NCBI GenBank assembly: GCA_951406725.2
Contig: OX597836.1
Span: 27,218,001-27,282,000, forward strand
DNA length: 64,000 bases
Origin: Octopus vulgaris
Lineage: Eukaryota
Direction of reading: 5' to 3'
In this document: piece after piece, positions 319-57,864 of the stretch
Position numbering within the stretch: position 1 is the stretch's first letter
How the letters are laid out: the number at the start of each line of letters is the position of its first letter
Position numbers and translations under genes: made by a program
The notes under the pieces: model-generated
What the model was told of the DNA's origin: nothing
What the model saw: the letters and a program-made list of their open reading frames with translations, nothing else
Databases searched by the model: none

Positions 319-910
319 AGAAAATTATTATTTTTAAATCTCTCAACGAGAGATATTCAGCAACTGTACTTTGGAGTAAAGATTGTTTGCCAACATAAGA
401 TGGCAGTCTTGGTTTAGGACGAATGTTGCAGTAATTTAGTCCCAGGAAACATGGTCCCTAGCTGGCTGTACGACTGGCTACAGATGTATCCTTATATTTT
501 CGAACAAGGGAATCTAGCACCCCAACTCAGCTCAAAACAATATCTGTGTATAGCAATTTCCAGGTTCTTTTCCTGTGTAACCCAGAAATCATGATACACG
601 TATTTCTTTATTGCCCACAAGGAGCTAAACATAGAGGGGACAAACAGGGACAGATAAAGGGTTTAAGTCGATTACATCGATCCCAGTGCGTAACCGGTAC
701 TTATTTAATTGACCCCCGAAAGGATGAAAGGCAAAGTTGACCACAGATATTGTTTTGAGTTGAGTGGGGGTGCTAGATTCCCTTGTTCGAAAATATAAGG
801 ACACAGATCGTGTTGTATAGCCAGATGGAGACGATGTCTTCTGGGGCTAAATTACAGCTACATTCATCCTAAACCAGGACTGCCATGTTATGTTGGCAAA
901 CAATCTTTAC
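319..910. mobile_element. Non-autonomous foldback element, copy 1, with a SINE fragment inserted at ~601-741
   Basis: Inverted arms ~376-566 and ~578-910. Flanked by tgcttttatttt (307-318) and tgctttatttt (911-921). Same termini as the copy at 36331-37000. Confidence 0.8.
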
Positions 911-5188: not shown

Positions 5189-5726
5189 CGAATCGTGCTC
5201 TTCGTCTTGACTGTTTACCTTTGTGAAGAGTTACATCAATCCTTTTTAAAATAATAATATAATTATAATAATAATCATAATAACGATGATGATAATAATA
5301 AAAATAATAATAATAATGATAATGAATTTGACGGTAGTAACAGACCATTACCCCATTTCCTTCCATTTTTCTAAAAAAAAAAGTGTTTCTTCGGAATTTC
5401 ATTCTAACCATTCCCGGTCCACCCTTCCCATCATGCTTTGTCCAGCCTTCCCATCATGCTCTACCCACTTCAACCAATGGTAATGTCGCCAACTCCCCTC
5501 TTTCCCTAGCTAACCTCACCAAAACAACAAGTGATATGGTCTGGAGTTAATGGTTGTGAATTGAGAGAAAAAAAAAAACTAAATGGTTTTGTTATCTGAA
5601 GAATTTGTTTCACTGTTTTTACCTTCAAGAATAAACCACTGCGGATATCTTCATCACTGAATCTGTGTTAGTTTCTCATTACACACACATACACGTGCAA
5701 ATAGATAGATTGATGCATAGATATAA

Positions 5727-5771
<45 letters not shown>

Positions 5772-5833
5772 TTCAATATGTGACCTCATGAGTACCGCTG
5801 GCGATTTTTTTCCTCTGTCTTCCCTTCTCCTAT

Positions 5834-5868
5834 GTTTCCGACGAAGAGCTCCGCTCGAAACGTTAAAC
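5834..5868 (+). ncRNA. Minimal hammerhead-like motif (C3-G8, U4 to C variant) in a repeat embedded in (TA)n
   Basis: gttt-CCGACGA-A-GAGC(tcc)GCTC-GAAA-CGTT-aaac. Confidence 0.5.
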
Positions 5869-6449
5869 CCTCCTTCTTCCCTTCTTTCCTGAGCGTCCAA
5901 TAATACTTTATTTGTTCCACGTCCACGCGTTGTTGTGTTTTTTTTGTGTTTTCTTGTTTGGATTAACTATATATATATATATATATATAAAGTTAATCCA
6001 AACAAGAAAGCACATTTTAAAAAAATACGGGTGCAGCGAAATTCATTTTTGGACTTTCTTCTATCGATGGCATTTTAAGAAAAATGCTTCCGTAAAGACG
6101 GTGAAAATTCAATTTTTAAACAATAACCAAAGCCCCTTCTCCGTAAGGGGGAGGGTTACGGTTTACAATTATTTAACAAATGCAACACAACAGCGCTTCC
6201 CTGACGAGGAACCAACAAACGTGATTACAATAGTCAAACAGTAATAATATTAACAACAAACCTTTTTAATTTATCCCCATTTATGTGAAAACACTGATGC
6301 AATTTTATACGAATTGCTAATACACACACACATAATAAGGGTGAAATATTGAATATTAATTTGATTAATATGAATTGAAAACCAATGGTGTAGCATATAA
6401 GACCATAGCGGATCTTCTTCTAGCAAAATGGATGACCATTGTTAATGGT

Positions 6450-6702
6450 TCATCCCTGTTATATAATACTTTCACTTTAATAGTGAAAGTGTCTGCATTA
6501 CAAAAGAGAAATGTTTTTGTTTCACTTTTAACACGTAATACTGAAATAGTGGAGAAGATATGATATTGCTGTGGGGTCGCCCTAGGGAAAAAGTTAAGTA
6601 AGGCATGTGTAAAATTTGAATGAAATTGGTTGTGTAGTTCTCAAGTTTTAGTGAAACACACAGACAGACAGGCACACATTCTCAGTTTTATATATATAGA
6701 GA
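6450..6702 (-). mobile_element. Helitron-like non-autonomous fragment (5' end)
   Basis: Minus strand begins TCTCTATATATATAAAA...TGTCTGTCTG, a typical Helitron 5' pattern. No 3' end seen. Confidence 0.4.
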
Positions 6703-7427
6703 TATTTATTATTATAAGTGCATGCGTGGTAAGAAGCTTGCTTTCCAACCACATGGTTACGGGTTCAGTCTCACTGTGTGGCACCTTTTAGTAAGTGTTT
6801 TTCTACTATAGCTTTGGACCGACTAAAGAAGCCCATCATATATATGTGTGAGTCTTTGTGTCTGTTTCCTCCCCCATCGATGTTGGTGTGTTTACGTTCC
6901 CGTAACTTAGTGGCTCGGCAAAAGTGACTGATAGAATAAGTACTTGGCTTGGGTTCGATTTATTCGACTAAAAAAACCCCATTTAAGGTGGACGCAGTAA
7001 CAAATAAAAGAATATGTATGTGTGTGTGTTTTGTATTTGTCCCTTATCACCAGTGCTGGTTTGTTTACGTCCTCGTAGCATAGTGGTTCGGTAAAAGAGA
7101 CCGACAGAATACGAAACAAGTTTAAAAGAAGTACTGGGATCAATTTATTTGACAAAAAAGAAAAAAAGAAAACTCTTCAAGACGGTGCTCCAGCATGACC
7201 GCGGTCCACTGACTGAAACAAGTAAAAGATAAACGATTCCTTCTATTCAAAGGCGGTACCAAAGTACATTACCGTAGTTTTGCCATCTAAAAATTATTAT
7301 CACTAACGACACTACTACGGGTGATTGCCAGGCTGGGATGCTACAACAGCCAAACACCCTCCCGAACATCCTCTGATACAATCGTGAGATGTTGACATTG
7401 TTACGAGTAATTGTTGGGCTGGGATCC

Positions 7428-7897
7428 TTCCCTGGGCATGGACACGTTGAAACTCCGACGTCTGGCAGCTGGCTTGGCAGACACCCATAAAATTATTAAC
7501 CATCTTACTAACAATAACTCTGAGCACCTTTTCAAACTCCACCCGTCTAACACCCGTGGACATATTTACAAAGTCAGAAAACAGCACAGCTCCCATGACT
7601 TTAGGAAACATTTTTTCACGCTGAGAGTTGCTGAAGTATGGAACAAACTGCCGGCATCAGTTGTTAGTTGTCGGAGCACTGCATCCTTCAAAACTTCCAT
7701 GCTTTCTGAGATTCGCCAACACTACACCTGATTTTCTCCCCTCCATACACACACAAGCATGTATCTGACTCATACATTGTTTGCTTCCCAGACATTTGTA
7801 AATTACTGCATATGCTTTATATGCACTTTCTGACAAGTTGTGGTGCACCTGAGCACTGTATACAATAATTTCGTTATTATTGTTATTATTATTATTA
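7428..7897 (+). mobile_element. 5'-truncated CR1-type LINE (ORF2 C-terminus, 3' UTR, (TTA)n tail)
   Basis: ORF 7411-7731 has LRRL...TRGH.YK...RKHFFTLRVAEVWNKLP.SVV...FK, the conserved CR1 ORF2 end. Confidence 0.85.
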
Positions 7898-8689
7898 TAT
7901 TCAGGAAGAAGATGTGTCATTCATGGCTATCTAAAGAGGTTTAGTTGGATAAATGAAGTGCAATAGCTTCAACTTGTTGCAGATTCTGATAACAGGGAAC
8001 TTAGCTTTCTTCTAAACTTATTAAAATTATGACACAACTGCTGTAGATAACAGTGAGCACTGTATACAATATTTTCATTAAAAAGGTAATGTAAAAGGAG
8101 AAGAAAGGGGACTCTCTACACCCCCTTTTTTTTTTTACCAGGCTCCCGTTGGCTTTTGTAGGGTTTTTTCCACCAGGAACCTTTCGAGACGTCTCCCCCT
8201 TTTGGGAGTTTTTCATTGTTGAATTTTATAAGTTGTTATAAAGATTTTTACTCGATGTTTTTAAAAAAACGGCAAAACCCTTTGTAACCTTTCGTCCTGT
8301 CTTGTCCCTTTATGTAATCATGCGTGTCAGCCCTTGTGGCCAATAAAAAAGAATTGATTATTATTATTATTATAGAGGCGCATCCGCATATAAAAAAAAA
8401 AGGGCGCCGTGACACATATCAAGCAATTTTTCACTCATTGATTATTCATTTCATAAAAAGCGTCAATTTTGAAAACTGTGCTTGGGTGGGGGGTAGTGGT
8501 CGCTCTCCTTATCAGTTACGTCACTGACTGGGATGCTACAACAGACGAACATACTCTTGATACTTCAGTGAGGCGTTATTAACGAAGTTTGAAAATCCGT
8601 CGTTGGCGATTCATCTCCTACCAACGGATCGAAAGCCACAAGTTGGAAAATGTAAATGCAGATTACTGTATTTCGTTAGTTGTCCCTTC

Positions 8690-8780
8690 TTCATTTCAAG
8701 ACATGTTATAAAGTGTTTTGGAGAAATGGTCATCCCCTTGTCTGACACCCCTTTCCAACTGAAGTCTTAATGGTGGGCAG
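8690..8780 (-). pseudogene. Decayed RTE-like reverse transcriptase fragment
   Basis: Frameshifted LERGVRQGD / ISPKHFITCLE, resembling the RT motif GVRQGDxISPKLF. Confidence 0.5.
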
Positions 8781-10684
8781 AATAGATCGACATCGGTGGT
8801 GCAACCCGCATCACAATTTCATCTAGTATCGTGCACAGCCAGGGATTTATTTACCTTGATGCTGAGAAAATTATATTGTTACAAAATTTGAACCGAAACG
8901 GAAAAGAAGGGTGCAGTCAAGACAAGAAAGAATAGGAGCGCACAGTGACTAGCGATGTGTAAGGACTGCTCATAATTTGGGCCGACAGAACGATTTCATT
9001 AGCTACAATTGCATTAAACCAAGGGAAATAACTCTCACAAGCTCAGTTTTCAAATTACAACGTGAGATATTTAATGGTAGAGAAATATAGATATTTTTTG
9101 TAGTGATGGGAATGAATGGTGGTGGTGGTGGAGAAGTATATTGTTGTTTAACCCCAGGTCAGCCTTGATTGAGCAATCATACAGCAAAACGGCGAGACAC
9201 GACCTAGGCAGAGATTCATTTTCTTAGATCAATTGTCTGTTTAACTAACGTCTGTACTATACGTTCATATACAGACTGTGTATCAGGGCGCAGTATAGTC
9301 GTCATACGGTGGTATATTGTACAGGGCATTCATGGGCAAACTGCGGCCCGTGGGATTTTCTGATTCGCACGATGATGTGTTTTTCTCAAAGGACAAGAAG
9401 GGTGCAAGCTGAGTGGAATTTGACTGCTATTTCTAGCAACGTGTTTGGATGATGGTTGTAAGAAGAAACTGAAATAGCGGTGGAAGGTGGTGGTGCTTAT
9501 GTGGGCGAAGGTGGTGTGGAGGAGGTGTTATCGGTGATGCAAAGGGAATGGTTATGGGGGTAGTGGTGGTGGGATGGGGTGATGAAGAAAAAACATTTGG
9601 GGAATTACAGACAATGGTGATATTTCGTAACCAAGTTATGCAGGCTTTTGTAGTTTAGCCCCAGGTCAGCACTGATTGATTAATCATATGATCACAGACA
9701 TTCTAGATATGGCCATCCTGTCCTTTTTGGGGGCATAATGTATCTAGGACTACATTATCCAATGTGTCCTTCTCTTTTCAAGATGGTAGAGTATGAATTG
9801 AGAGAGATTTGACTGCTATGTCTACAAGGAGGTCTCAAAGCAATGAAAATATTTTGACAAATTAAATTTAAATGTTGAAGTGAATCTAACGGATTTTGTG
9901 TGTTTCTTGAAAGGCTTATAAACACCTTCCATGCTGCAATTGTTTTCATTCCAGCACACGATCTCAGATCAGGTCACTTGCTATGCAAGTACATCTCCAT
10001 AATATATATATATATTTATATATATACACACTGATGACACAGAGGGGACCATATTTGAGAGGAGGGGCAGGCAACGACAGTGATAGTCTGGCACAGACGT
10101 GTCTGTGAATTCATCTTACGGTCAAGACTAGAATTTAGAACTAAGAACTAATGAAACATCGACCAAATATCCTCAACGGTGCCACCATTTACAATATATA
10201 ACCATGTGGTGGATATCCTCAACAGACAAGCAGACTGAGCTATTGCAAACTGACCACCTTCACCAGTGATCTGATGATACGCGACTGGGTTTTGAACCAG
10301 CAACCTTTCAATTTAGAGGTCCACAACCTAAAGAAATTCAATTTTCTTGTTGAGGCTGTAGAGTAGATTTGTGACTAAGGACACTCCAGCTGTGACCATT
10401 CCATCTTTAATGGAACATAGTGTATCTTGGACTACATTATTCTATAGTGGTGTCCGTTATTTTAAGCAGGTAAAGTGAAATATGGCTGCTATTTCTAACA
10501 GTTCAAGCATGCAGACTCCTTACAACACCTTTCTTTACCTGTTAACAGAAAACTCAATTAACCAAATGCTGTTCCAGCCATGACCATTCCATTTATTAAA
10601 TAAATGGTGGTGGTTGTGAAGGAGGAGCACTGTCTGTGTCTTTTTTTCGTGTTTCCTCTTTAGGAGACATTTAAGTAGTAGTAT

Positions 10685-11092
10685 CTATTTCTTTACTGCC
10701 CACAAGGGGCTAAACACAGAGGGGACAAACAAGGACAGACATAGGTATTAAGTCGATTACATCGACCCCAGTGCATAACTGGTACTTAATTTATCGACCC
10801 CGAAAGGATGAAAGGCAAAGTCGATCTCGGCGGAATTTGAACTCAGAACGCAGAGGTGGACGAAATACCTATTTCTTTACTACCCACAAGGGGCTAAACA
10901 CAGAGGGGACAAACAAGGACAGACAAACGGATTAAGTCGATCACATCGACCCCAGTGCATAACTGGTACTTAATTTATCGACCCCCGAAAGGATGAAAGG
11001 CAAAGTCGACCTTGGCAGAATTTGAACTCAGAACGCAGCGGTGGACGAAATACCGCAATGCATTTCGCCCGGCGTGCTAACATTTCTGCCAG
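10685..11092 (-). mobile_element. SINE family B (GGCGAGCTGGCAGAA head), partial tandem dimer
   Basis: Core GTCGACTTTGCCTTTCATCCTTTCGGGGTCGATAAATTAAGTACC resembles a Deu/Nin-type domain (from memory). Other copies at 19140-19890, 32433-32663, 33676-33907, 41243-41870, 47945-48330 and 53790-53985. Confidence 0.8.
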
Positions 11093-12813: not shown

Positions 12814-13009
12814 CTGTGTTTGTCTCCCTAACATTGCTTGACAACCGATGCTGGTGTGTTTACATCCCCATCACTTAGCGGTTCGGCAAAAGAGACCGAT
12901 AGAATAAGTACTGGGCTTACAAAGAATAAGTCCCGGGGTCGATTTGCTCGACTAAAGGCGGTGCTCCAGCATGGCCGCAGTCAAATGAGTGAAACAAGTA
13001 AAAGAGTAA
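12608..13009 (+). mobile_element. SINE family A (GGCGCAGGAGTGGCTGTGTGG tRNA head, internal TA/TG tract, AAAAGAGT tail)
   Basis: A- and B-box-like motifs. Near-identical copies at 21861-22263, 22464-22818, 25847-26225, 32849-33249, 51753-52133(-), 57531-57858, 58490-58812 and 61563-61885(-). Confidence 0.85.
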
Positions 13010-13260
13010 GGTAGGAAAGGTAGGAGAGTTCAGTTTGCTGGACATTGTTGTAGAGCTGAAAAAGAAGTAATTTCTACTCTTCTCCTCTGGAAGCCATCTA
13101 CTCGCAATACCAGAGGGCGCACACTCTCCTACCCTGATGTAATCTCCAGGGATACAGGCATCCAGCAACAGGACCTCCGTAATGCCATGATGGACCGTGA
13201 AGTCTGGCGTAGCATGGTAAATTCCATTGTCTCGACCACGGTCGAACAATGATGATGATG
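13010..13260 (+). mobile_element. RTE/RTE-X-like LINE 3' fragment, copy 1
   Basis: Encodes RRVQFAGHC.R...LLLWKP...RGR...WRSMV, followed by a (TGA)n tail. 8-bp TSD aagagtaa (13002-13009 and 13261-13268). Confidence 0.8.
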
Positions 13261-13789
13261 AAGAGTAACCGCACCATTGAAACCTTTGAGGTACAAGATA
13301 ATGTATGATAACTGCAAATTAATGTGGATAAGGGTGGACGTTAAATGAACGATGATGATACGTTTGAATGTAATTTGAATGCCGAAGAGTTAAACAGTAT
13401 TTCATTTACATTGTCTCAAAAAAAAAAAAAACTATAGTAAATTTATATCTGATTACAAATGAAAAAGAACAATGATAGCTTCATTAATTCTAATACAATT
13501 TTTGCTTGTGGATAGATAGATATATAAATACACATACACACATATTTATATATATACACGCTAATATTGAACAGTGAGAATAAGTGCTCAACACAAGGCT
13601 ACCAATGGTTTCATGCGGAGAGAGAAATCTCTCCACAATTATCAAACTTTCCACATGGAATGTTGGTATTCATGGCCACCTTGGATGGAAATGTGACAAG
13701 GACCAACATTCCATGTGGAAGGCTTGACAACTGTTGAGAGATTTCTCCCTGCATGAAACCAACAGTAGCTTTATTAAGCCACATATAAA

Positions 13790-36056: not shown

Positions 36057-36165
36057 CACCAATGCCTATAACGTAGATGTTCTCCCCTTGTCCCTCTTCA
36101 ACCCGGGCCTTGATTATCTCAGCAAGGGAATCATACTCTTCACTGGTTGGACTCACAAGAGCCAT
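36057..36165 (-). CDS. GTPBP1: GTPBP1 coding exon 2 ([14 protein letters not shown]...[10 protein letters not shown])
   Basis: Acceptor ttag|ATG, donor G|GTAAGT, 109 nt. Matches the GTPBP1 LVSPTSEQYDSL...GETIYVIG segment. Not in the ORF track; translated by hand. Confidence 0.92.
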
Positions 36166-36330
36166 CTAATGGAAAGAGACAGATAACAAGAGAGGCAATC
36201 ATTGAGAGGAACAGAAATTTACATGTATACATTGTTACCATGACAACAACTTGTAACACATCATGTGGCTGTGGTAATTCAGCTTAACTTAGATGGTTCA
36301 GAGGAGAATAATGTGAAGTGGATATTTATT

Positions 36331-37000
36331 AGAAAATTACTATTTTTAAATCTCACAAAGAGAGATATTCAGCAACAGTACACGTGACCGATACCGCTGC
36401 TGACGACTGAGAACTCGTTAGCCGTTGACCACCGCCGCCTTGTGCCTGACACACGGAAACACACACTCGTGCTCGATATTGCCGCCGTAGCTTGGTTTAG
36501 GACGAATGTTGCAGTAATTTAGCCCCAGGAGACATCATCTCCAGCTGGCTATACGACATGATCTGTGTCCTTATATTTTTGAATAAGGGAATCTAGCACC
36601 CCCACTCAGCTCAAAACAATATCTGTGTATTGCGATTTTTGGGTTAATTCTCTTCATCAGCACAGAATAATTATTTGGCTAGAGGTGGCGCTGCCAAATT
36701 CCCATCTGAAATATATAGTTTTCAAAGTGACAACCAGTCACTGATCTATGAATTAGAAAATTACTATTTTTAAATCTCACAACGTGAGATATTCTGTGCT
36801 GATGAAGAGAAATAACCTGGAAATCGCGATACACAGCTATTGTTTTGAGCTGAGTGGGGGTGCTAGGTTCCCTTGTTCGAAAATATAAGGACACAGATCG
36901 TGTTGTATAGCCAGCTGGAGACGATGTCTCCTGGGGCTAAATTACAGCGACATTCGTCCTAAACCAGGACTGCCACGTTATGTTGGCAAATAATCTTTAC
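36331..37000. mobile_element. Non-autonomous foldback element with hammerhead-like motifs, copy 2
   Basis: 12-bp TSD tggatatttatt (36319-36330 and 37001-37012). ~180-bp inverted arms at 36491-36669 and 36790-36968. Confidence 0.85.
36794..36836 (+). ncRNA. Minimal hammerhead-like motif (C3-G8)
   Basis: ctgtg-CTGATGA-agagaaataacctg-GAAA-TCGCGA-TA-cacag, with palindromic ATCGCGAT stem III and a weak stem II. Confidence 0.55.
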
Positions 37001-39955
37001 TGGATATTTATTGTCACAAATCTGGAACTAAGGACAAGAGGTTAGATTAGAATGTTGCAAGAAAGAATCACAAGATGAATTCTTCAAGCTGAGCCAACCA
37101 GTAGGAGACTTGGGGTAGACCAAGAACAAGATGGTTGCTTCTGATAGAACCCTATGGAGGAGGGGCCTGTAGATTCTATCCCATGACCCTGCCAAGAATA
37201 GTGAGTAAAAAAGATGAGGGAATGGATTCCATGTCCCTAGTCTATCAAGGTCTCGTGCAGAATTTGAAAACAGTACAAAAGACTAATAAAACATCTATCA
37301 TTTCCACAGTGTTCCTACTGCTTACACATGAAAAACATTTACAGCCTGATATTTCAGTGACTGACTTAATTATGGTCACAGAGCAGTGCTGGCAACAGAA
37401 TATGAATGCCCACTTTTATGATGCAGGGGCTGGTCCTTCTATTAACTCACAAAATATCTCAAGGGAACATTCATTACTTAATGTTCCTTTTTCCATGCTG
37501 GTATGGGTTGCATGTTTCAGCAAGAACCGTTGACCCAGAGGACTGTGCCAAGCTCCTGTGTTTGCTCTTTCATGGTTTCTACAGCTGGATACCTTCCCTT
37601 TTCAGCATAATTCTGGCTTAGGTGGTTACATGCAATTTAATCCATGGCTAGGACCCTGACAGGTGCTATAACCCCAGGCCAAAATATACCTGGGAACAAC
37701 AGTGGCTAAGGGGTTGTTTTGTTCCATAGTCCTCAAGACCCTGGAACTCCCAAACTGGAGTCCCATTTCTCTGGATGTTTGTTTCATGGCATCAGCACTG
37801 GTGAGGTACCAAGTACTCACAAGACAGAACCCCACCACCACCACCACCACCACCACCACCACTTCAGCTGAGTGGGGCAAGAGTATTGAGGAGTGTGAAA
37901 GTATGTCAGAAGGACAAGAGCAGGTCCTTTACTGAAGAGATGGATACATGGCCTCCTTAAGTACTAAATACACGCACAATAGGGTCTTCACATAATGTAA
38001 TACAATGAGGTAAAAACTTCAATCGAGATTATCCAAGTGATAACTAGGTAAAAACTCCCTCTATGGGTGTTTGAGATCTAAACACAACAAGCAACCGCCT
38101 TTAAGATCAGCTGACTGAAATTATTAGGCAGTACAGTCCCTGGAGCCGATAAGGTTGCTAACGAGAGCCACATCTCCTTTACACCAACTGTTGCAGTTAC
38201 TATGGTCACCAATGGCAGTAACATCTGAGTCAAAGTTGGTAGGTCACAGCAGAGTCAAGAATCAGCTATCAGTCCCAGTGACAAGCCCAACAACAAGAAC
38301 CACTGCAGAAATGATAACCCACTTTTAGTACTGCTCCACTATAGCAGTCAGCCAATAGATCTGGCACTGCTTGTATGATGGCCTTTCAAGCCAGACTGAC
38401 TACTCATCCATTGGAAGTAAATATTGATGGATGGGTAGTAGTGACAGTATGACAGAATTCCAGAATAGTGGAACAGTGGAACATCAGAATGTTAGAATAA
38501 GACATAAATGTGTGAAATATTCTTTTGTTCTTTTACTTGTTTCAGTCATTTGACTGTGGCCATGATGGAGCACTGCCATTAAACAAATCGATCCCAGGAC
38601 TTATTCTTTGTAGGCCACTGTTGCCAAACCGCTAAGTTATTGGGATGCAAACATATCAACATTAAGTGTCAGTTGATGGTAGGCAGACAAACAGAGAGAG
38701 ACACACACATCTCTCTCTCTCTCTGTCAGTTAGTGGAGACATGTGGCTTATATATATCTATATATATATATATACATACACACACACACACACAGGATGG
38801 GCTTCTTTCGGTTTCCGTTTACTGATTCCACTCCCAAGTCTTTGGTCAGCCTGAAGCTATAGTAGAAGACGCTTGCCGAAAGGTGCCACACAGCGGGATT
38901 GAACCCGGAACCATGTGGTTGGGAAGCAAGCTTCTTACCACACAGCTATGCCTGTTGTTTTGTAAGATTTAAAACACTTCATGTCTTCTTTAGAAAGAAA
39001 ACATTAAAAAAAAAAAAATTCTTTACATCTACACTATGTTTCCATCAGTTTGATCTCTGACTGTCATCAGGTGTTGTATTCCTCCACACACACACACACA
39101 TAAATACATTTATAGGCACCGATATATCCAAACTTAAACTCACACCAACCAGGCCATTTCACATGTATTTGTGGCCCAGTGCAGAAGGGCTTCATTACTC
39201 ATGCCTTGCTCCCTGTCAGTTAATGGAAGCACGTGGCTTAGTGGTTAGAGTGGTGGACCCTTAATCGTAAGAGTGTGGTTTTGATTCCTGAACTGGGCAA
39301 CACATTGTGTTCTTGAACAAGACACTTCATTTCACATTGCTCCGGTCCACTCAGCTGGCAAAGATGATTAATCCTGCGACAGACTGGTGTCCCGTCCAGG
39401 TGGAGAATCTATACACCATGGAAACCCAGAAACTGGCCCTTAAGGGTCAGTATGGCTCGAGAAAGAAGCTTTGCTTTTACTTTACCAGTCAGTTACAACA
39501 ATGAGGGTCCCAGCTGATCTGATCAACAGAACAGCCTGCTTGTGAAATTAACATGCAAGCGGCTGAGCACTCCACAGACACACATACCCTTAACATAGTT
39601 CTCAGGGAGATTCAGTGTGACACAGAACGTGATAACGTTGGCCCCTTTGAATTACGGGTACTACTCATTTTTACCAGCTTAGTGAATTGGAGCAACATAA
39701 AATAAAGTGTCTTGCTCAAGGAGACAACACTCTGAATTCATAGCGTTACGATAGTGAACCGAATGCCCTGGTCACTAAGCTACATACCTTGTCATAGTTT
39801 TCAAAATAAAGGCCCCTAATATAAAACCCAGTCCAGTATTATGTACGTCCTCAGGAATAAGATCCCTGATAACAATTGGAGATTAAACCAGACAGAAACA
39901 TAGTGAAGATGTAAAACATGTCAAACTATTTCATATCTAAAGATGAAGTTAATAG

Positions 39956-40245: not shown

Positions 40246-40338
40246 TAGAACATGAGGAGATATAGAAACAAAGAATAGGGAAATGAGAAAAGGAAACAAG
40301 CAAAGCAGAGAAAAAAAAAAAGGGGTGAAATTCTTTAC

Positions 40339-52771: not shown

Positions 52772-53295
52772 TTAATCTAAAATATATTTTCCTTCATTTT
52801 CTACAATGCTCTTCCATCTATCTGGTAGACTTGCAAGGCCCCTCTTCCAAAATTCCCTTGTCCGTGATGAAAAATACTCCTCCACTACTGTTCTGACCTC
52901 GTCTACAGAATTCATATTTTTACCATCCAAACTATTTTGAAGACTGTGGAACAAATGATAATCAGATAGGGCAATGCCCAGTGAATATGGTGGGTGGGGC
53001 ATCGTTTCCCATTCAAACTGCTCCAACCTTTGGAATGTCATCCTCACTGTGTATGGCCGAGTATTATCCTGATGGAAGAACACCTTTTGTCTTGAAACCA
53101 AAGATGGTCATTTTCTGATGGCATGCAGGTGTCAATGAATGGTTAAATGACCAAACCCAAGTTTCTCTGCTAGTTCCTCAACTGTTACGATGGGATTTTG
53201 TTCCACCAGGGTTTGTAGGACGTCCTTGTTGAGCTCTACATATTTTCCAGGATGAGGTTCATCTCGGCTGTAGTTTCCGGCTTGGAATGTCTGGA

Positions 53296-54035
53296 CCACA
53301 AGGCCCTAGGGTGAATACTGCTGTGTATATTGAGGTGTTCAGGATAAAGTTGTTAAGTATTGGATTAACAGTGTATGCAATGGAAGGCCTTATGTCTTTC
53401 AACAAGACTCTACACCATCACACAGGGCTCAAATGACACATGAACGGATGGCCAACAATTTGCATGATCACATCACCCCCAACATTTGGCCTCCTAATTT
53501 TTCAGGTCTGAATCCACTGGACTACTATGTATGGAGCATTGTTGAGAAAAATGTCAATGACCACCCCTATAGCACCAAAGATTCTTTGAAAGCTACCATA
53601 GTTTGAGTCATGTCTGAGATGAACAAGGACCATTTAATCCAAGCTGGTAAATGATTTCGTCCCTGCGTAAAGACAGTTAGCGATGCTTATGGTGGTTTTA
53701 TTGAATGAAATTATTAAATTGATAATTTATCTTAATGTTTTATGTTATTTTTATTAAAATACAAATTTTTTCTGTTATTATATAAGAGGCTTAAGGTAAC
53801 GAACTGGCAGAAATGCTAGTACACCAGGCAAAATGCTTAGAGGTATCAAATTCCCCCGAGGTCAACTTTGCCTTTCATCCTTTTGGGGTTGATAAATTAA
53901 GCATCAGTTGCATACTGGGGTCGATCTAATTGACTTGCCCCCTCCCCCCAAATTTCGAGCCTTGTGCCTAGTGGAGAAAAGATTATATAAGCAGTTTTTA
54001 AAACTATAAATCTGTCCTCAAATACAGTCCGCACC

Positions 54036-56304: not shown

Positions 56305-56564
56305 TTAAATTTGTTCAGAATCTATGCTTCATAACCACAAATGCCTGTTGGCCAAACGCGCACTTGCACTAGCCATTTTTTTTTTAGCTTAGTTGGGACA
56401 CTTTTGTTGGTCCAGATGTTATTAAGCTTTATCCATGGATGTTCTTGCCCATGGTCAGCCGTGTCCTAATTTCTTTCTTAGGAGCACTCGCAACACACAT
56501 GCACACACCACCACCACAAAACAACTGCATAACCATCATCTTCCAACATCAGACCATAACCTGT

Positions 56565-56814
56565 GAAAGGTAGGAGAGTCCAGTTTGCTGGACATTGTTG
56601 TAGAGCTGAAAAAGAAGTAATTTCTACTCTTCTCCTCTGGAAGCCATCTACTCGCAATACCAGAGGGCGCACACTCTCCTACCCTGATGTAATCTCCAGG
56701 GATACAGGCATCCAGCAACAGGACCTCCGTAATGCCATGATGGACTGTGAAGTCTGGCGTAGCATGGTAAATTCCATTGTCTCGACCACGGTCGAACAAT
56801 GATGATGAATGATG
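56565..56814 (+). mobile_element. RTE/RTE-X-like LINE 3' fragment, copy 2
   Basis: About two substitutions relative to 13010-13260. 9-bp TSD ataacctgt (56556-64 and 56815-23). Confidence 0.85.
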
Positions 56815-57864
56815 ATAACCTGTAACAACAACAACAACACCACCACCACCACCAACAACAACAACAGCACAAGAGTCCCAAACTGCCACCAGATGGACAA
56901 CATGCCTCAGATGTAAAATAGCCAGCCCTATTAACGATCAAGCTGATTAATTAAATTGTTAATTGAAATCTGATGAAATATCTTTTACATTAGCCAAGTC
57001 CCCCCTGCCCCCCCCGCTCTCTCTCACTCACATACACAATACACCCCTCTCACTTCTTCATCCCCCCTTCTCATTCATATACAAACAATACTCCCTCTCA
57101 CTTCTTTTTTTCTCTCTCTCTCTCTACTTCTCTCCCACCCTTTCTAACTTTCTAATGTTCTTGCTCTCTCTCATTCTCTCTCTCTCTTTCACCATTATTA
57201 CAACCTTCATTCTTTTCTACTTCTCTCATTCAACTCACCCAGAACAATTCTTTCTTCCCTCCCCTCCTCTTCCACTACTACCACTACCTCACCACTCCCA
57301 CCTACCCTTAGTACTCTGTCTCTCTCTCTCTCTCTGACAAATCATTATTTACTCTTTCTCTCACTCTCCCAACCATTTCCTTACCTCTCTTTTGCTTTCA
57401 GTTCCTTATCACTCTCATATATTCTTCTCTCTCTCTCTCTCTCCCTCTCGAACACACACACATTTAACATTATCTGGGTAATAAAGCTTCTAGCATGCTT
57501 TCCAAAGCTCCTGTAGCCAACAGCTATATATAGGAGTGGCTGTGTGATAAGAAGCTTGCTTCACAACCACATGGTTCCGGGTTCAGTCCCACTGCATGGC
57601 ACCTTGGGCAAGTGTCTTCCGCTATAGCCTCAGGCCGACCAAAGCCTTGAGAGTGAATTTGGTAGACTGAAACTGAAAGTAGCCCGTCGTGTATATATAT
57701 GTGTGTGTGTCTATGTTTGTCCCCCCTACCATCACTTGACAACTGATTTTGGTGTGATTATGTCCCTGTAACTTAGCAGTTTGGCAAAAGAAACCGATAG
57801 AATAAGTGCTAGGCATACAAAGGATAAGTCCTGTGGTCGATTTGTTTGACTATAGGCGGAAGAG

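Follow-up and report, generated by a model that had tools for sequence, protein, structure and literature searches.

What kind of mobile element produces a long hairpin with precise ends and a hammerhead motif in each arm, and is its mirrored arm formed anew at every insertion or copied ready-made? These questions are raised by a 670-nt foldback element in a probable intron of the GTPBP1 gene in a 64,000-nt stretch of the Octopus vulgaris genome (contig OX597836.1, positions 27,218,001 to 27,282,000), hereafter called the window and numbered from its first letter. The element, referred to here as copy B (36331-37000), has a relative in the same window, copy A (319-910). We consider it probable that both belong to a high-copy family of non-autonomous derivatives of Penelope-like elements (PLEs), which would move in trans by target-primed reverse transcription with the reverse transcriptase-endonuclease of a PLE.

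Copy B is flanked by an exact 12-bp target site duplication (TSD) at 36319-36330 and 37001-37012; at one given site, such a 12-mer is expected by chance with a probability of about 1e-7 under the local composition. Since its first T is also the arm end of the family, and TT is common to the duplication and the internal junction, the length of the duplication is ambiguous within 9-12 nt. The complementary parts of the arms (36493-36669 and 36790-36966) measure 177 nt each and match at 92%. A 40-nt leader (36331-36370, plus strand), which contains two short hairpins and forms the outer part of a 56-nt tail, recurs internally in direct orientation at 36755-36794 (plus strand), as the original prediction had described together with the asymmetry of the arms. 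This direct repeat ends at 36794 and the inverted arm begins at 36790, giving an overlap of 5 nt at the inversion point. Read along the minus strand, copy B thus consists of an inverted copy (37000-36790), a tandem copy of the unit's end, truncated to 40 nt (36794-36755), and then a unit of about 353 nt, composed of an 85-nt spacer, a hammerhead, an arm and the 56-nt tail (the 40-nt leader plus a 16-nt linker). The spacer (36670-36754, minus strand) is the 5' part of this unit and meets the internal leader at ATT; the same trinucleotide precedes the leader at the insertion site of copy B, and TTT precedes it in copy A. The left arm (36491-36669) resembles the pseudo-long terminal repeat (pLTR) of PLEs and carries its hammerhead in sense on the minus strand, while the right arm (36790-37000, plus strand), an inverted copy, has no tail and possibly extends to the T at 37001.

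The extreme ends of copy B contain no inverted repeats, and the tail stands outside the left arm only. Likewise, the internal repeat of the leader is one-sided, belonging to the left end, direct, and not complementary to both termini. It was correctly noted before that this is not a normal miniature inverted-repeat transposable element (MITE) with terminal inverted repeats, and the termini speak against a transposon of that type. Within the leader, a 7-bp hairpin (36772-36790 in copy B, 337-353 in copy A) is perfect both in copy A and in the internal leader of copy B through a paired change (C-A-C/G-T-G versus C-T-C/G-A-G), and the outer leader of copy B mixes both forms. This hairpin is a possible protein-binding or start signal.

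The combination of a partial tandem, an adjoining inverted copy, a one-sided tail, hammerheads on opposite strands and an AT-rich target is the published head-to-head pattern of PLE insertions. In PMC8557442, a partial tandem lies next to an inverted copy, with a tail of 30-40 bp on one side only; an inverted pLTR, a tail and a TSD of 8-10 bp are described in PMC3846280, according to which sequences lying between pLTRs are mobilised in trans and the pLTRs are sufficient for it. In PMC11167929, the tail corresponds to the span between two start sites of reverse transcription, both target strands are cleaved and extended, and ATT is the preferred cut. In the octopus family, a PLE protein would accordingly nick an AT-rich site and prime on an RNA intermediate at the tail end, and staggered nicks would leave the 9-12 nt duplication. 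The left end would be the first reverse-transcription start site, and the right end a second start or a resolution site. With both outer ends being PLE start or resolution sites, precise ends lacking terminal inverted repeats would be accounted for. In a putative founder event, synthesis would have run through one unit and 40 nt into a second, changed strand within the 5 nt of microhomology and run back as far as the arm end; the composite would afterwards have been amplified largely as a unit.

Copy A shares both ends with copy B. Its TSD has 12 nt on the left (307-318) and 11 nt on the right (911-921), differing by one T. Of the earlier claim that two copies share their start and end and each have a duplication of about 12 bp of the form TG...TATT, the shared ends and the 12 bp of copy B hold, but copy A deviates in length and ends in ATTTT. 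Copy A begins with a complete tail of leader and linker (319-374, plus strand) and a left arm with a complete outer end (375-570, minus strand), and it closes with the right arm (742-910, plus strand). Between the arms, a truncated SINE-like repeat (short interspersed element; 598-741), with at least 17 other matches in the window, has taken the place of the spacer, of the internal leader and of the greater part of the right hammerhead.

To place the two copies within their family, contigs from 4 of 24 public runs, bearing four organism codes, were aligned to 36671-37500, that is, the right half of copy B and its flank. The analysis covers 15 of 312 joints, 40 of 89 variant rows and 24 of 1,838 loose ends, and rarer forms are hidden from it. 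All four runs yielded contigs on this 830-nt stretch in large number (5,534-10,752 per run), part of them belonging to a different repeat at about 37035-37200. In each run, 106-160 contigs exit the leader at 36794 into sequence equal to copy A 359-388 at 29/30 letters. Because contigs leave the leader into a linker and reversed arm end like those of copy A in every run, the left end of copy A is the family norm. Given this norm, the stretch 36382-36490 of copy B is a foreign insert that replaced the arm end: behind the first 11 of the 16 linker nucleotides (36371-36381, plus strand), which follow the consensus of the loose ends behind 36794, this 109-nt piece stands in for about 38 nt of linker and arm end. 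It has a G+C content of 59% and contains an 8-bp hairpin; no source for it was found within the window, in Rfam or among phages, and it matches no tRNA.

At the other end, in each run 120-218 contigs continue past the arm beyond 37001 into sequences that agree poorly (0.46-0.47) and mix tail with differing flanks; the right end is therefore precise across the family and may include the T assigned to the duplication. Joints between opposite strands at 36794-37001 and 36677-36790 recur in 4/4 runs, and the inner joints connect 36671-36678 to 36790. A spurious open reading frame (ORF) from a public contig of an unrelated locus, P0003, covers a diverged copy, and its match stops at the same tail end. 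An empty site of copy B was not seen in the four runs, in which no listed piece joins the unique flank to the insertion point, and the exact 21-nt end motif had no match among metagenome contigs and none among viral contigs.

The family is high-copy. Relative to unique flank, summed depth reached about 2,100-3,200x over the spacer and 19,000-35,000x at the arm end in the three runs covering the flank; such a sum is not a copy number, is biased by mapping and is read only as a rough indication of thousands of copies. From the hammerhead to the arm end, depth increases 5.7-8.5 fold in 4/4 runs, possibly in part through mapping bias, and many 5'-truncated copies would yield such a gradient.

Precise ends, long arms, duplications of 9-12 nt and apparent copying as a unit would also suit a derivative of a DNA transposon, either a MITE or a Mutator-like foldback element that a DDE transposase would move and that would have acquired its hammerhead by chance or capture. 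Mutator-like elements make duplications of 9-11 nt. However, the termini are not mutually inverted, the 56-nt one-sided tail is repeated inside in direct orientation, depth rises toward the arm end, the hammerhead has PLE-type features and the junction reads ATT, and we regard a DNA transposon as very unlikely.

The hammerhead of the right arm (36794-36836, plus strand) is a type I minimal motif with a 5-bp helix I, an 8-nt palindromic helix III and a predicted cut at 36831/36832. Its core (36799-36831) is the sole descriptor match on both strands of the window (128 kb). The strict descriptor, set only after the motif had been seen, matched 0/100 resampled windows, and a loose one matched 21/100. 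The motif had been called intact, which is true of the core boxes and not of helix II, where the pairs are G-U, A x C and G-C; in the family, G at 36808 accounts for most of the depth and C at 36818 for much of it, and the minority A at 36808 is present in both arms of copy B. The counterpart in the left arm (36623-36665, minus strand, sense to GTPBP1) is degenerate. As predicted, it has lost the G of GAAA (G12; G to A at 36639), and in addition the palindrome of helix III is broken at 36631, which weakens the self-duplex from -12.1 to -2.3 kcal/mol. The two motifs of copy B lie on opposite strands about 135 nt apart, and no two hammerheads share a strand.

In copy A, no complete hammerhead is left: both motifs lack the CUGAUGA box, the left arm retaining GAAA and the 3' side of helix I. 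The segment 569-598 was considered as a decayed hammerhead box and rejected as not significant, since 500 and 649 of 5000 shuffles scored equally. The SINE-like repeat of copy A meets the right arm no more than 1 nt away from the predicted cut, and five other copies of that repeat continue past the corresponding point. This join is probably a truncated insertion with a target deletion, its coincidence with the cut being a single case.

According to PMC4209133, minimal hammerheads have an extra base before helix II and a palindromic helix III and show no activity as monomers, and in Schistosoma mansoni dual minimal hammerheads occur on opposite strands 100-700 bp apart. The PLE hammerhead studied in PMC11167929 needs protein and is dispensable for insertion in vitro. 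Whole-element folds of -386.6 (z -34) and -373.6 kcal/mol are predicted, with both hammerhead cores paired. The octopus hammerheads would thus be dimer-type passengers, transcribed after their own complements, buried in a 177-bp hairpin, presumably inactive and subject to neutral decay.

An alternative origin would be a non-LTR retrozyme, in which a circular RNA of about 353 nt, processed by the hammerhead, is copied for more than one unit length. The unit size and low G+C content fit such a template, as does synthesis beyond one unit, for which a circular or tandem RNA would serve (PMC4209133, PMC7229834), and descent of retrozymes from PLE pLTRs has been argued (bioRxiv 10.64898/2026.07.22.740005). 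On the other hand, there is no pair of hammerheads on the same strand, no joint of the 'go back' type is among the 15 of 312 listed, and the motif is minimal instead of canonical. This origin has little probability in our estimation, and the lack of head-to-tail units with same-strand hammerheads in the element argues against a retrozyme in the strict sense, although tandem arrays may exist elsewhere in the genome. The original prediction had left the choice between a non-autonomous Penelope-like and a retrozyme-like family; its first half is supported by the anatomy, the family-wide ends and joints and the published structure, and its second half fails in the strict sense.

It was also considered possible that selection had removed the ribozyme in sense to GTPBP1, which would cut the pre-mRNA. 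Consistent with this, the sense motif of copy B lacks G12 and the helix III palindrome, the sense motif of copy A has been deleted as well, and introns of Xenopus are depleted of retrozymes (bioRxiv 10.64898/2026.07.22.740005). Yet the motif has not diverged further than the arm around it, with differences at 5/42 positions in the motif region and 9/135 in the arm (Fisher p=0.33), and at 3-6% divergence a change in one of the 12 core bases would be expected in 31-52% of copies. Among the family's changes, C>T and G>A predominate, as judged from the contigs and the variant rows listed, and the listed family variants of the motif fall in helix II and at CpG sites, outside the core boxes. The antisense motifs are damaged too, by a broken helix II in copy B and the loss of the CUGAUGA box in copy A. 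Moreover, in either direction of transcription the motif emerges after its own complement, with its core paired in the predicted fold, and motifs of this kind cleave poorly or need the PLE protein (PMC4209133, PMC11167929). Neutral decay suffices to explain the loss, and selective removal appears very improbable.

How the mirror arm arises can be addressed through the columns present in all four arms of the two copies, about 137 in number. Three of them (36904, 36946 and 36967) split left from right arms, none splits copy A from copy B and none is crossed. Parallel mutation would be expected to produce 0.10-0.31 arm-specific columns; the probability of three or more is 0.0002-0.004, and that of two or more, with a CpG site dropped, 0.005-0.04. 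Three arm-specific states in common and no copy-specific split mean that the first strand of an insertion did not serve as template for its own mirror arm. In this sample of two copies, it seems to have been inherited rather than rebuilt at each landing, with the hairpin copied ready-made. Rebuilding by snap-back on the first strand at every insertion would fit the 5-nt microhomology at the inversion point and the self-priming proposed in PMC3846280, but the same states tell against it and make it very unlikely. Two possibilities are left, namely whole copying of a composite master and priming of the two ends from different RNAs.

In the latter case, each insertion of the same PLE family would result from two priming events on two RNAs, one at the tail end and one at the arm end, joined in the middle of the element, and no composite master would exist. 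The ability of the PLE protein to extend both target strands from two start sites (PMC11167929) provides for such events, and further features agree with them: the left arm of copy A has 11 private changes, 10 of them within 45 nt, as if drawn from a different template, the contigs contain many minor joints between spacer and arm, and arm-end depth is 8-14 times spacer depth. However, the same inner joint recurs in 4/4 runs, and 10/32 listed pieces begin exactly at 36790. The depth ratio of hammerhead to spacer, a rough measure, is 1.35-1.9 and thus nearer to two motifs per spacer, and the minority A at 36808 is common to both arms of copy B. We find two-template priming rather unlikely, while giving it more room than any of the other alternatives. 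The private changes of copy A are clustered at 440-490, where 10 of them and a 4-nt insertion fall within 45 nt; the cluster suggests another subfamily as template or conversion, and some of the 11, beside the insertion, are possibly alignment noise.

If the composite was copied whole, a by-product of PLE insertion, a tandem with an inverted copy, may have become a fixed, self-silencing foldback unit with PLE start sites at both ends, which spread to thousands of copies in the manner of a MITE. This proposal is a tentative one, which we rate at somewhat less than even.

Several points weigh against the PLE origin or the copying of the hairpin as a unit. Target duplications were measured in two copies only (12 and 12/11 nt, AT-rich), and, as stated above, depth is a loose guide to abundance. 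The tail of 56 nt is longer than the 30-40 given in PLE papers. An autonomous partner did not emerge: a peptide of arm plus tail, compared with 1.84 billion representatives, had two matches, one a spurious ORF covering another copy and the other an unrelated repeat protein, further peptide searches were empty, and there was no Pfam match above the cut-off. Membership among PLEs rests on anatomy, since no partner protein was found. As for the ribozyme, Rfam had no match in the window at the gathering score, and its hammerhead models match neither motif; a monomer hammerhead fold is not predicted (z 0.8), and an extra G precedes GAAA. With regard to unit copying, the left-arm T at 36946 has no A>T family variant of at least 4% among the listed rows, through rarity or mapping loss, and the diverged, tail-bearing P0003 carries the right-arm state there; unit copying therefore holds for one subfamily at most. 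The 11 private changes in the left arm of copy A and the many minor joints likewise oppose its generalisation.

Other searches of the element were negative. A long reading frame along the arm is interrupted by a stop in all four arms and was not taken as a gene, a bacterial promoter scan gave results at chance level and is not applicable here, and the eight weak Rfam matches near the element are of hairpin type, with no hammerhead family among them.

The host gene of copy B is represented by a GTPBP1 coding exon on the minus strand, probably exon 2 (36057-36165; E 1.9e-6 to 9ypg). As one candidate upstream coding exon was found, ending at 40338, copy B probably lies in intron 1. Between the exon (36165) and the element there are 165 nt, in agreement with the distance originally given from the exon 2 acceptor. 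Nothing points to a function of the GTPBP1 copy itself. On the plus strand, a probable 4-aminobutyrate aminotransferase exon (1287-1398) gives a weak match (E 0.012), and copy A probably sits in the preceding intron of that gene. The different high-copy repeat at 37035-37200 starts about 25 nt to the right of copy B, and its frame contains a GRPRTRW motif, which we take to be that of RTE-type LINE (long interspersed element) ends. Elsewhere, two nearly identical minus-strand ORF fragments (12917-13318 and 56536-56937), about 43 kb apart, are probably copies of another mobile element. Further ORF fragments (52772-53107 and 53334-53606) resemble the ends of Tc1/mariner transposases, and a minus-strand fragment (7411-7731) resembles a CR1-type reverse transcriptase protein in its C-terminal part.

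The way in which PLEs acquire their inverted ends and tails has yet to be explained (PMC8557442, PMC11167929). A short and abundant family with two precise ends could be of use here, as the linkage of left- and right-arm variants could separate unit copying, two-template priming and snap-back. If the hairpin is a fixed foldback unit, each copy would put 177 bp of double-stranded RNA and one sense and one antisense hammerhead into any intron that it enters; selection on intronic ribozymes could then be tested on such built-in pairs, and the family would supply natural data on the formation of PLE inverted ends. Thousands of intronic hairpins could also feed RNA editing or small-RNA pathways. 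The case matters for annotation as well, because automated pipelines would probably label such a family as a MITE or an unknown repeat.

Penelope-like families have been recently active in Octopus vulgaris according to PMC13282606, the main text of which, in the part represented here, makes no mention of ribozymes. The part of PMC12910113 drawn on adds nothing about the structure of such elements. Neither this family nor the amplification of a fixed foldback PLE unit as a whole was found described in the literature; subscription papers, supplements and repeat libraries may hold such a description.

The closest known systems are endonuclease-bearing PLE insertions, namely Pen2a of Adineta vaga and the captures flanked by pLTRs (PMC3846280), those in PMC8557442, and PAc (PMC11167929). 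These insertions and the octopus element are arranged head-to-head with a truncated tandem copy, a tail at one end and a short overlap at the inversion point. They also have in common an AT-rich target with ATT, capture of foreign sequence and mobilisation in trans, which is putative in the octopus family, and the TSDs are of similar length (8-10 bp there, 9-12 here). In contrast, the octopus element has no ORF at all, measures 670 nt, has a tail of 56 nt, occurs in thousands of copies by rough depth, and its arms are apparently a fixed pair. The minimal hammerheads of metazoan PLEs (PMC4209133) likewise are of type I, with a short helix I, an unpaired base after the CUGAUGA box, a palindromic helix III suited to dimers and a pair on opposite strands. 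The octopus motif differs in its helix II of only 3 bp and in an additional G before GAAA.

Short, protein-less elements with PLE-type ends include MRC1 of Chlamydomonas (PMC8557442) and the short non-autonomous Penelope elements mentioned for Heliconius (PMC6685494). MRC1 differs from the octopus family in its head-to-tail copies and in belonging to a clade without canonical hammerheads (PMC8557442). Non-LTR retrozymes (PMC7229834; bioRxiv 10.64898/2026.07.22.740005) resemble it as small non-coding units with a type I hammerhead, long TSDs and PLE ancestry, but they consist of head-to-tail repeats with mostly canonical motifs on the same strand and form circular RNAs, whereas the octopus motifs face each other. 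DIRS elements (PMC8969392) share the asymmetric inverted arms and the internal repeat of a terminal segment. They have no TSD, however, and their internal region is complementary to both ends; the octopus element is ruled out as one of them by the TSDs of both copies and by its direct repeat, which is restricted to the left end. The anatomy described here is thus already in print for PLEs, and the less ordinary point seems to be that the hairpin is apparently copied whole, as a ready-made unit.

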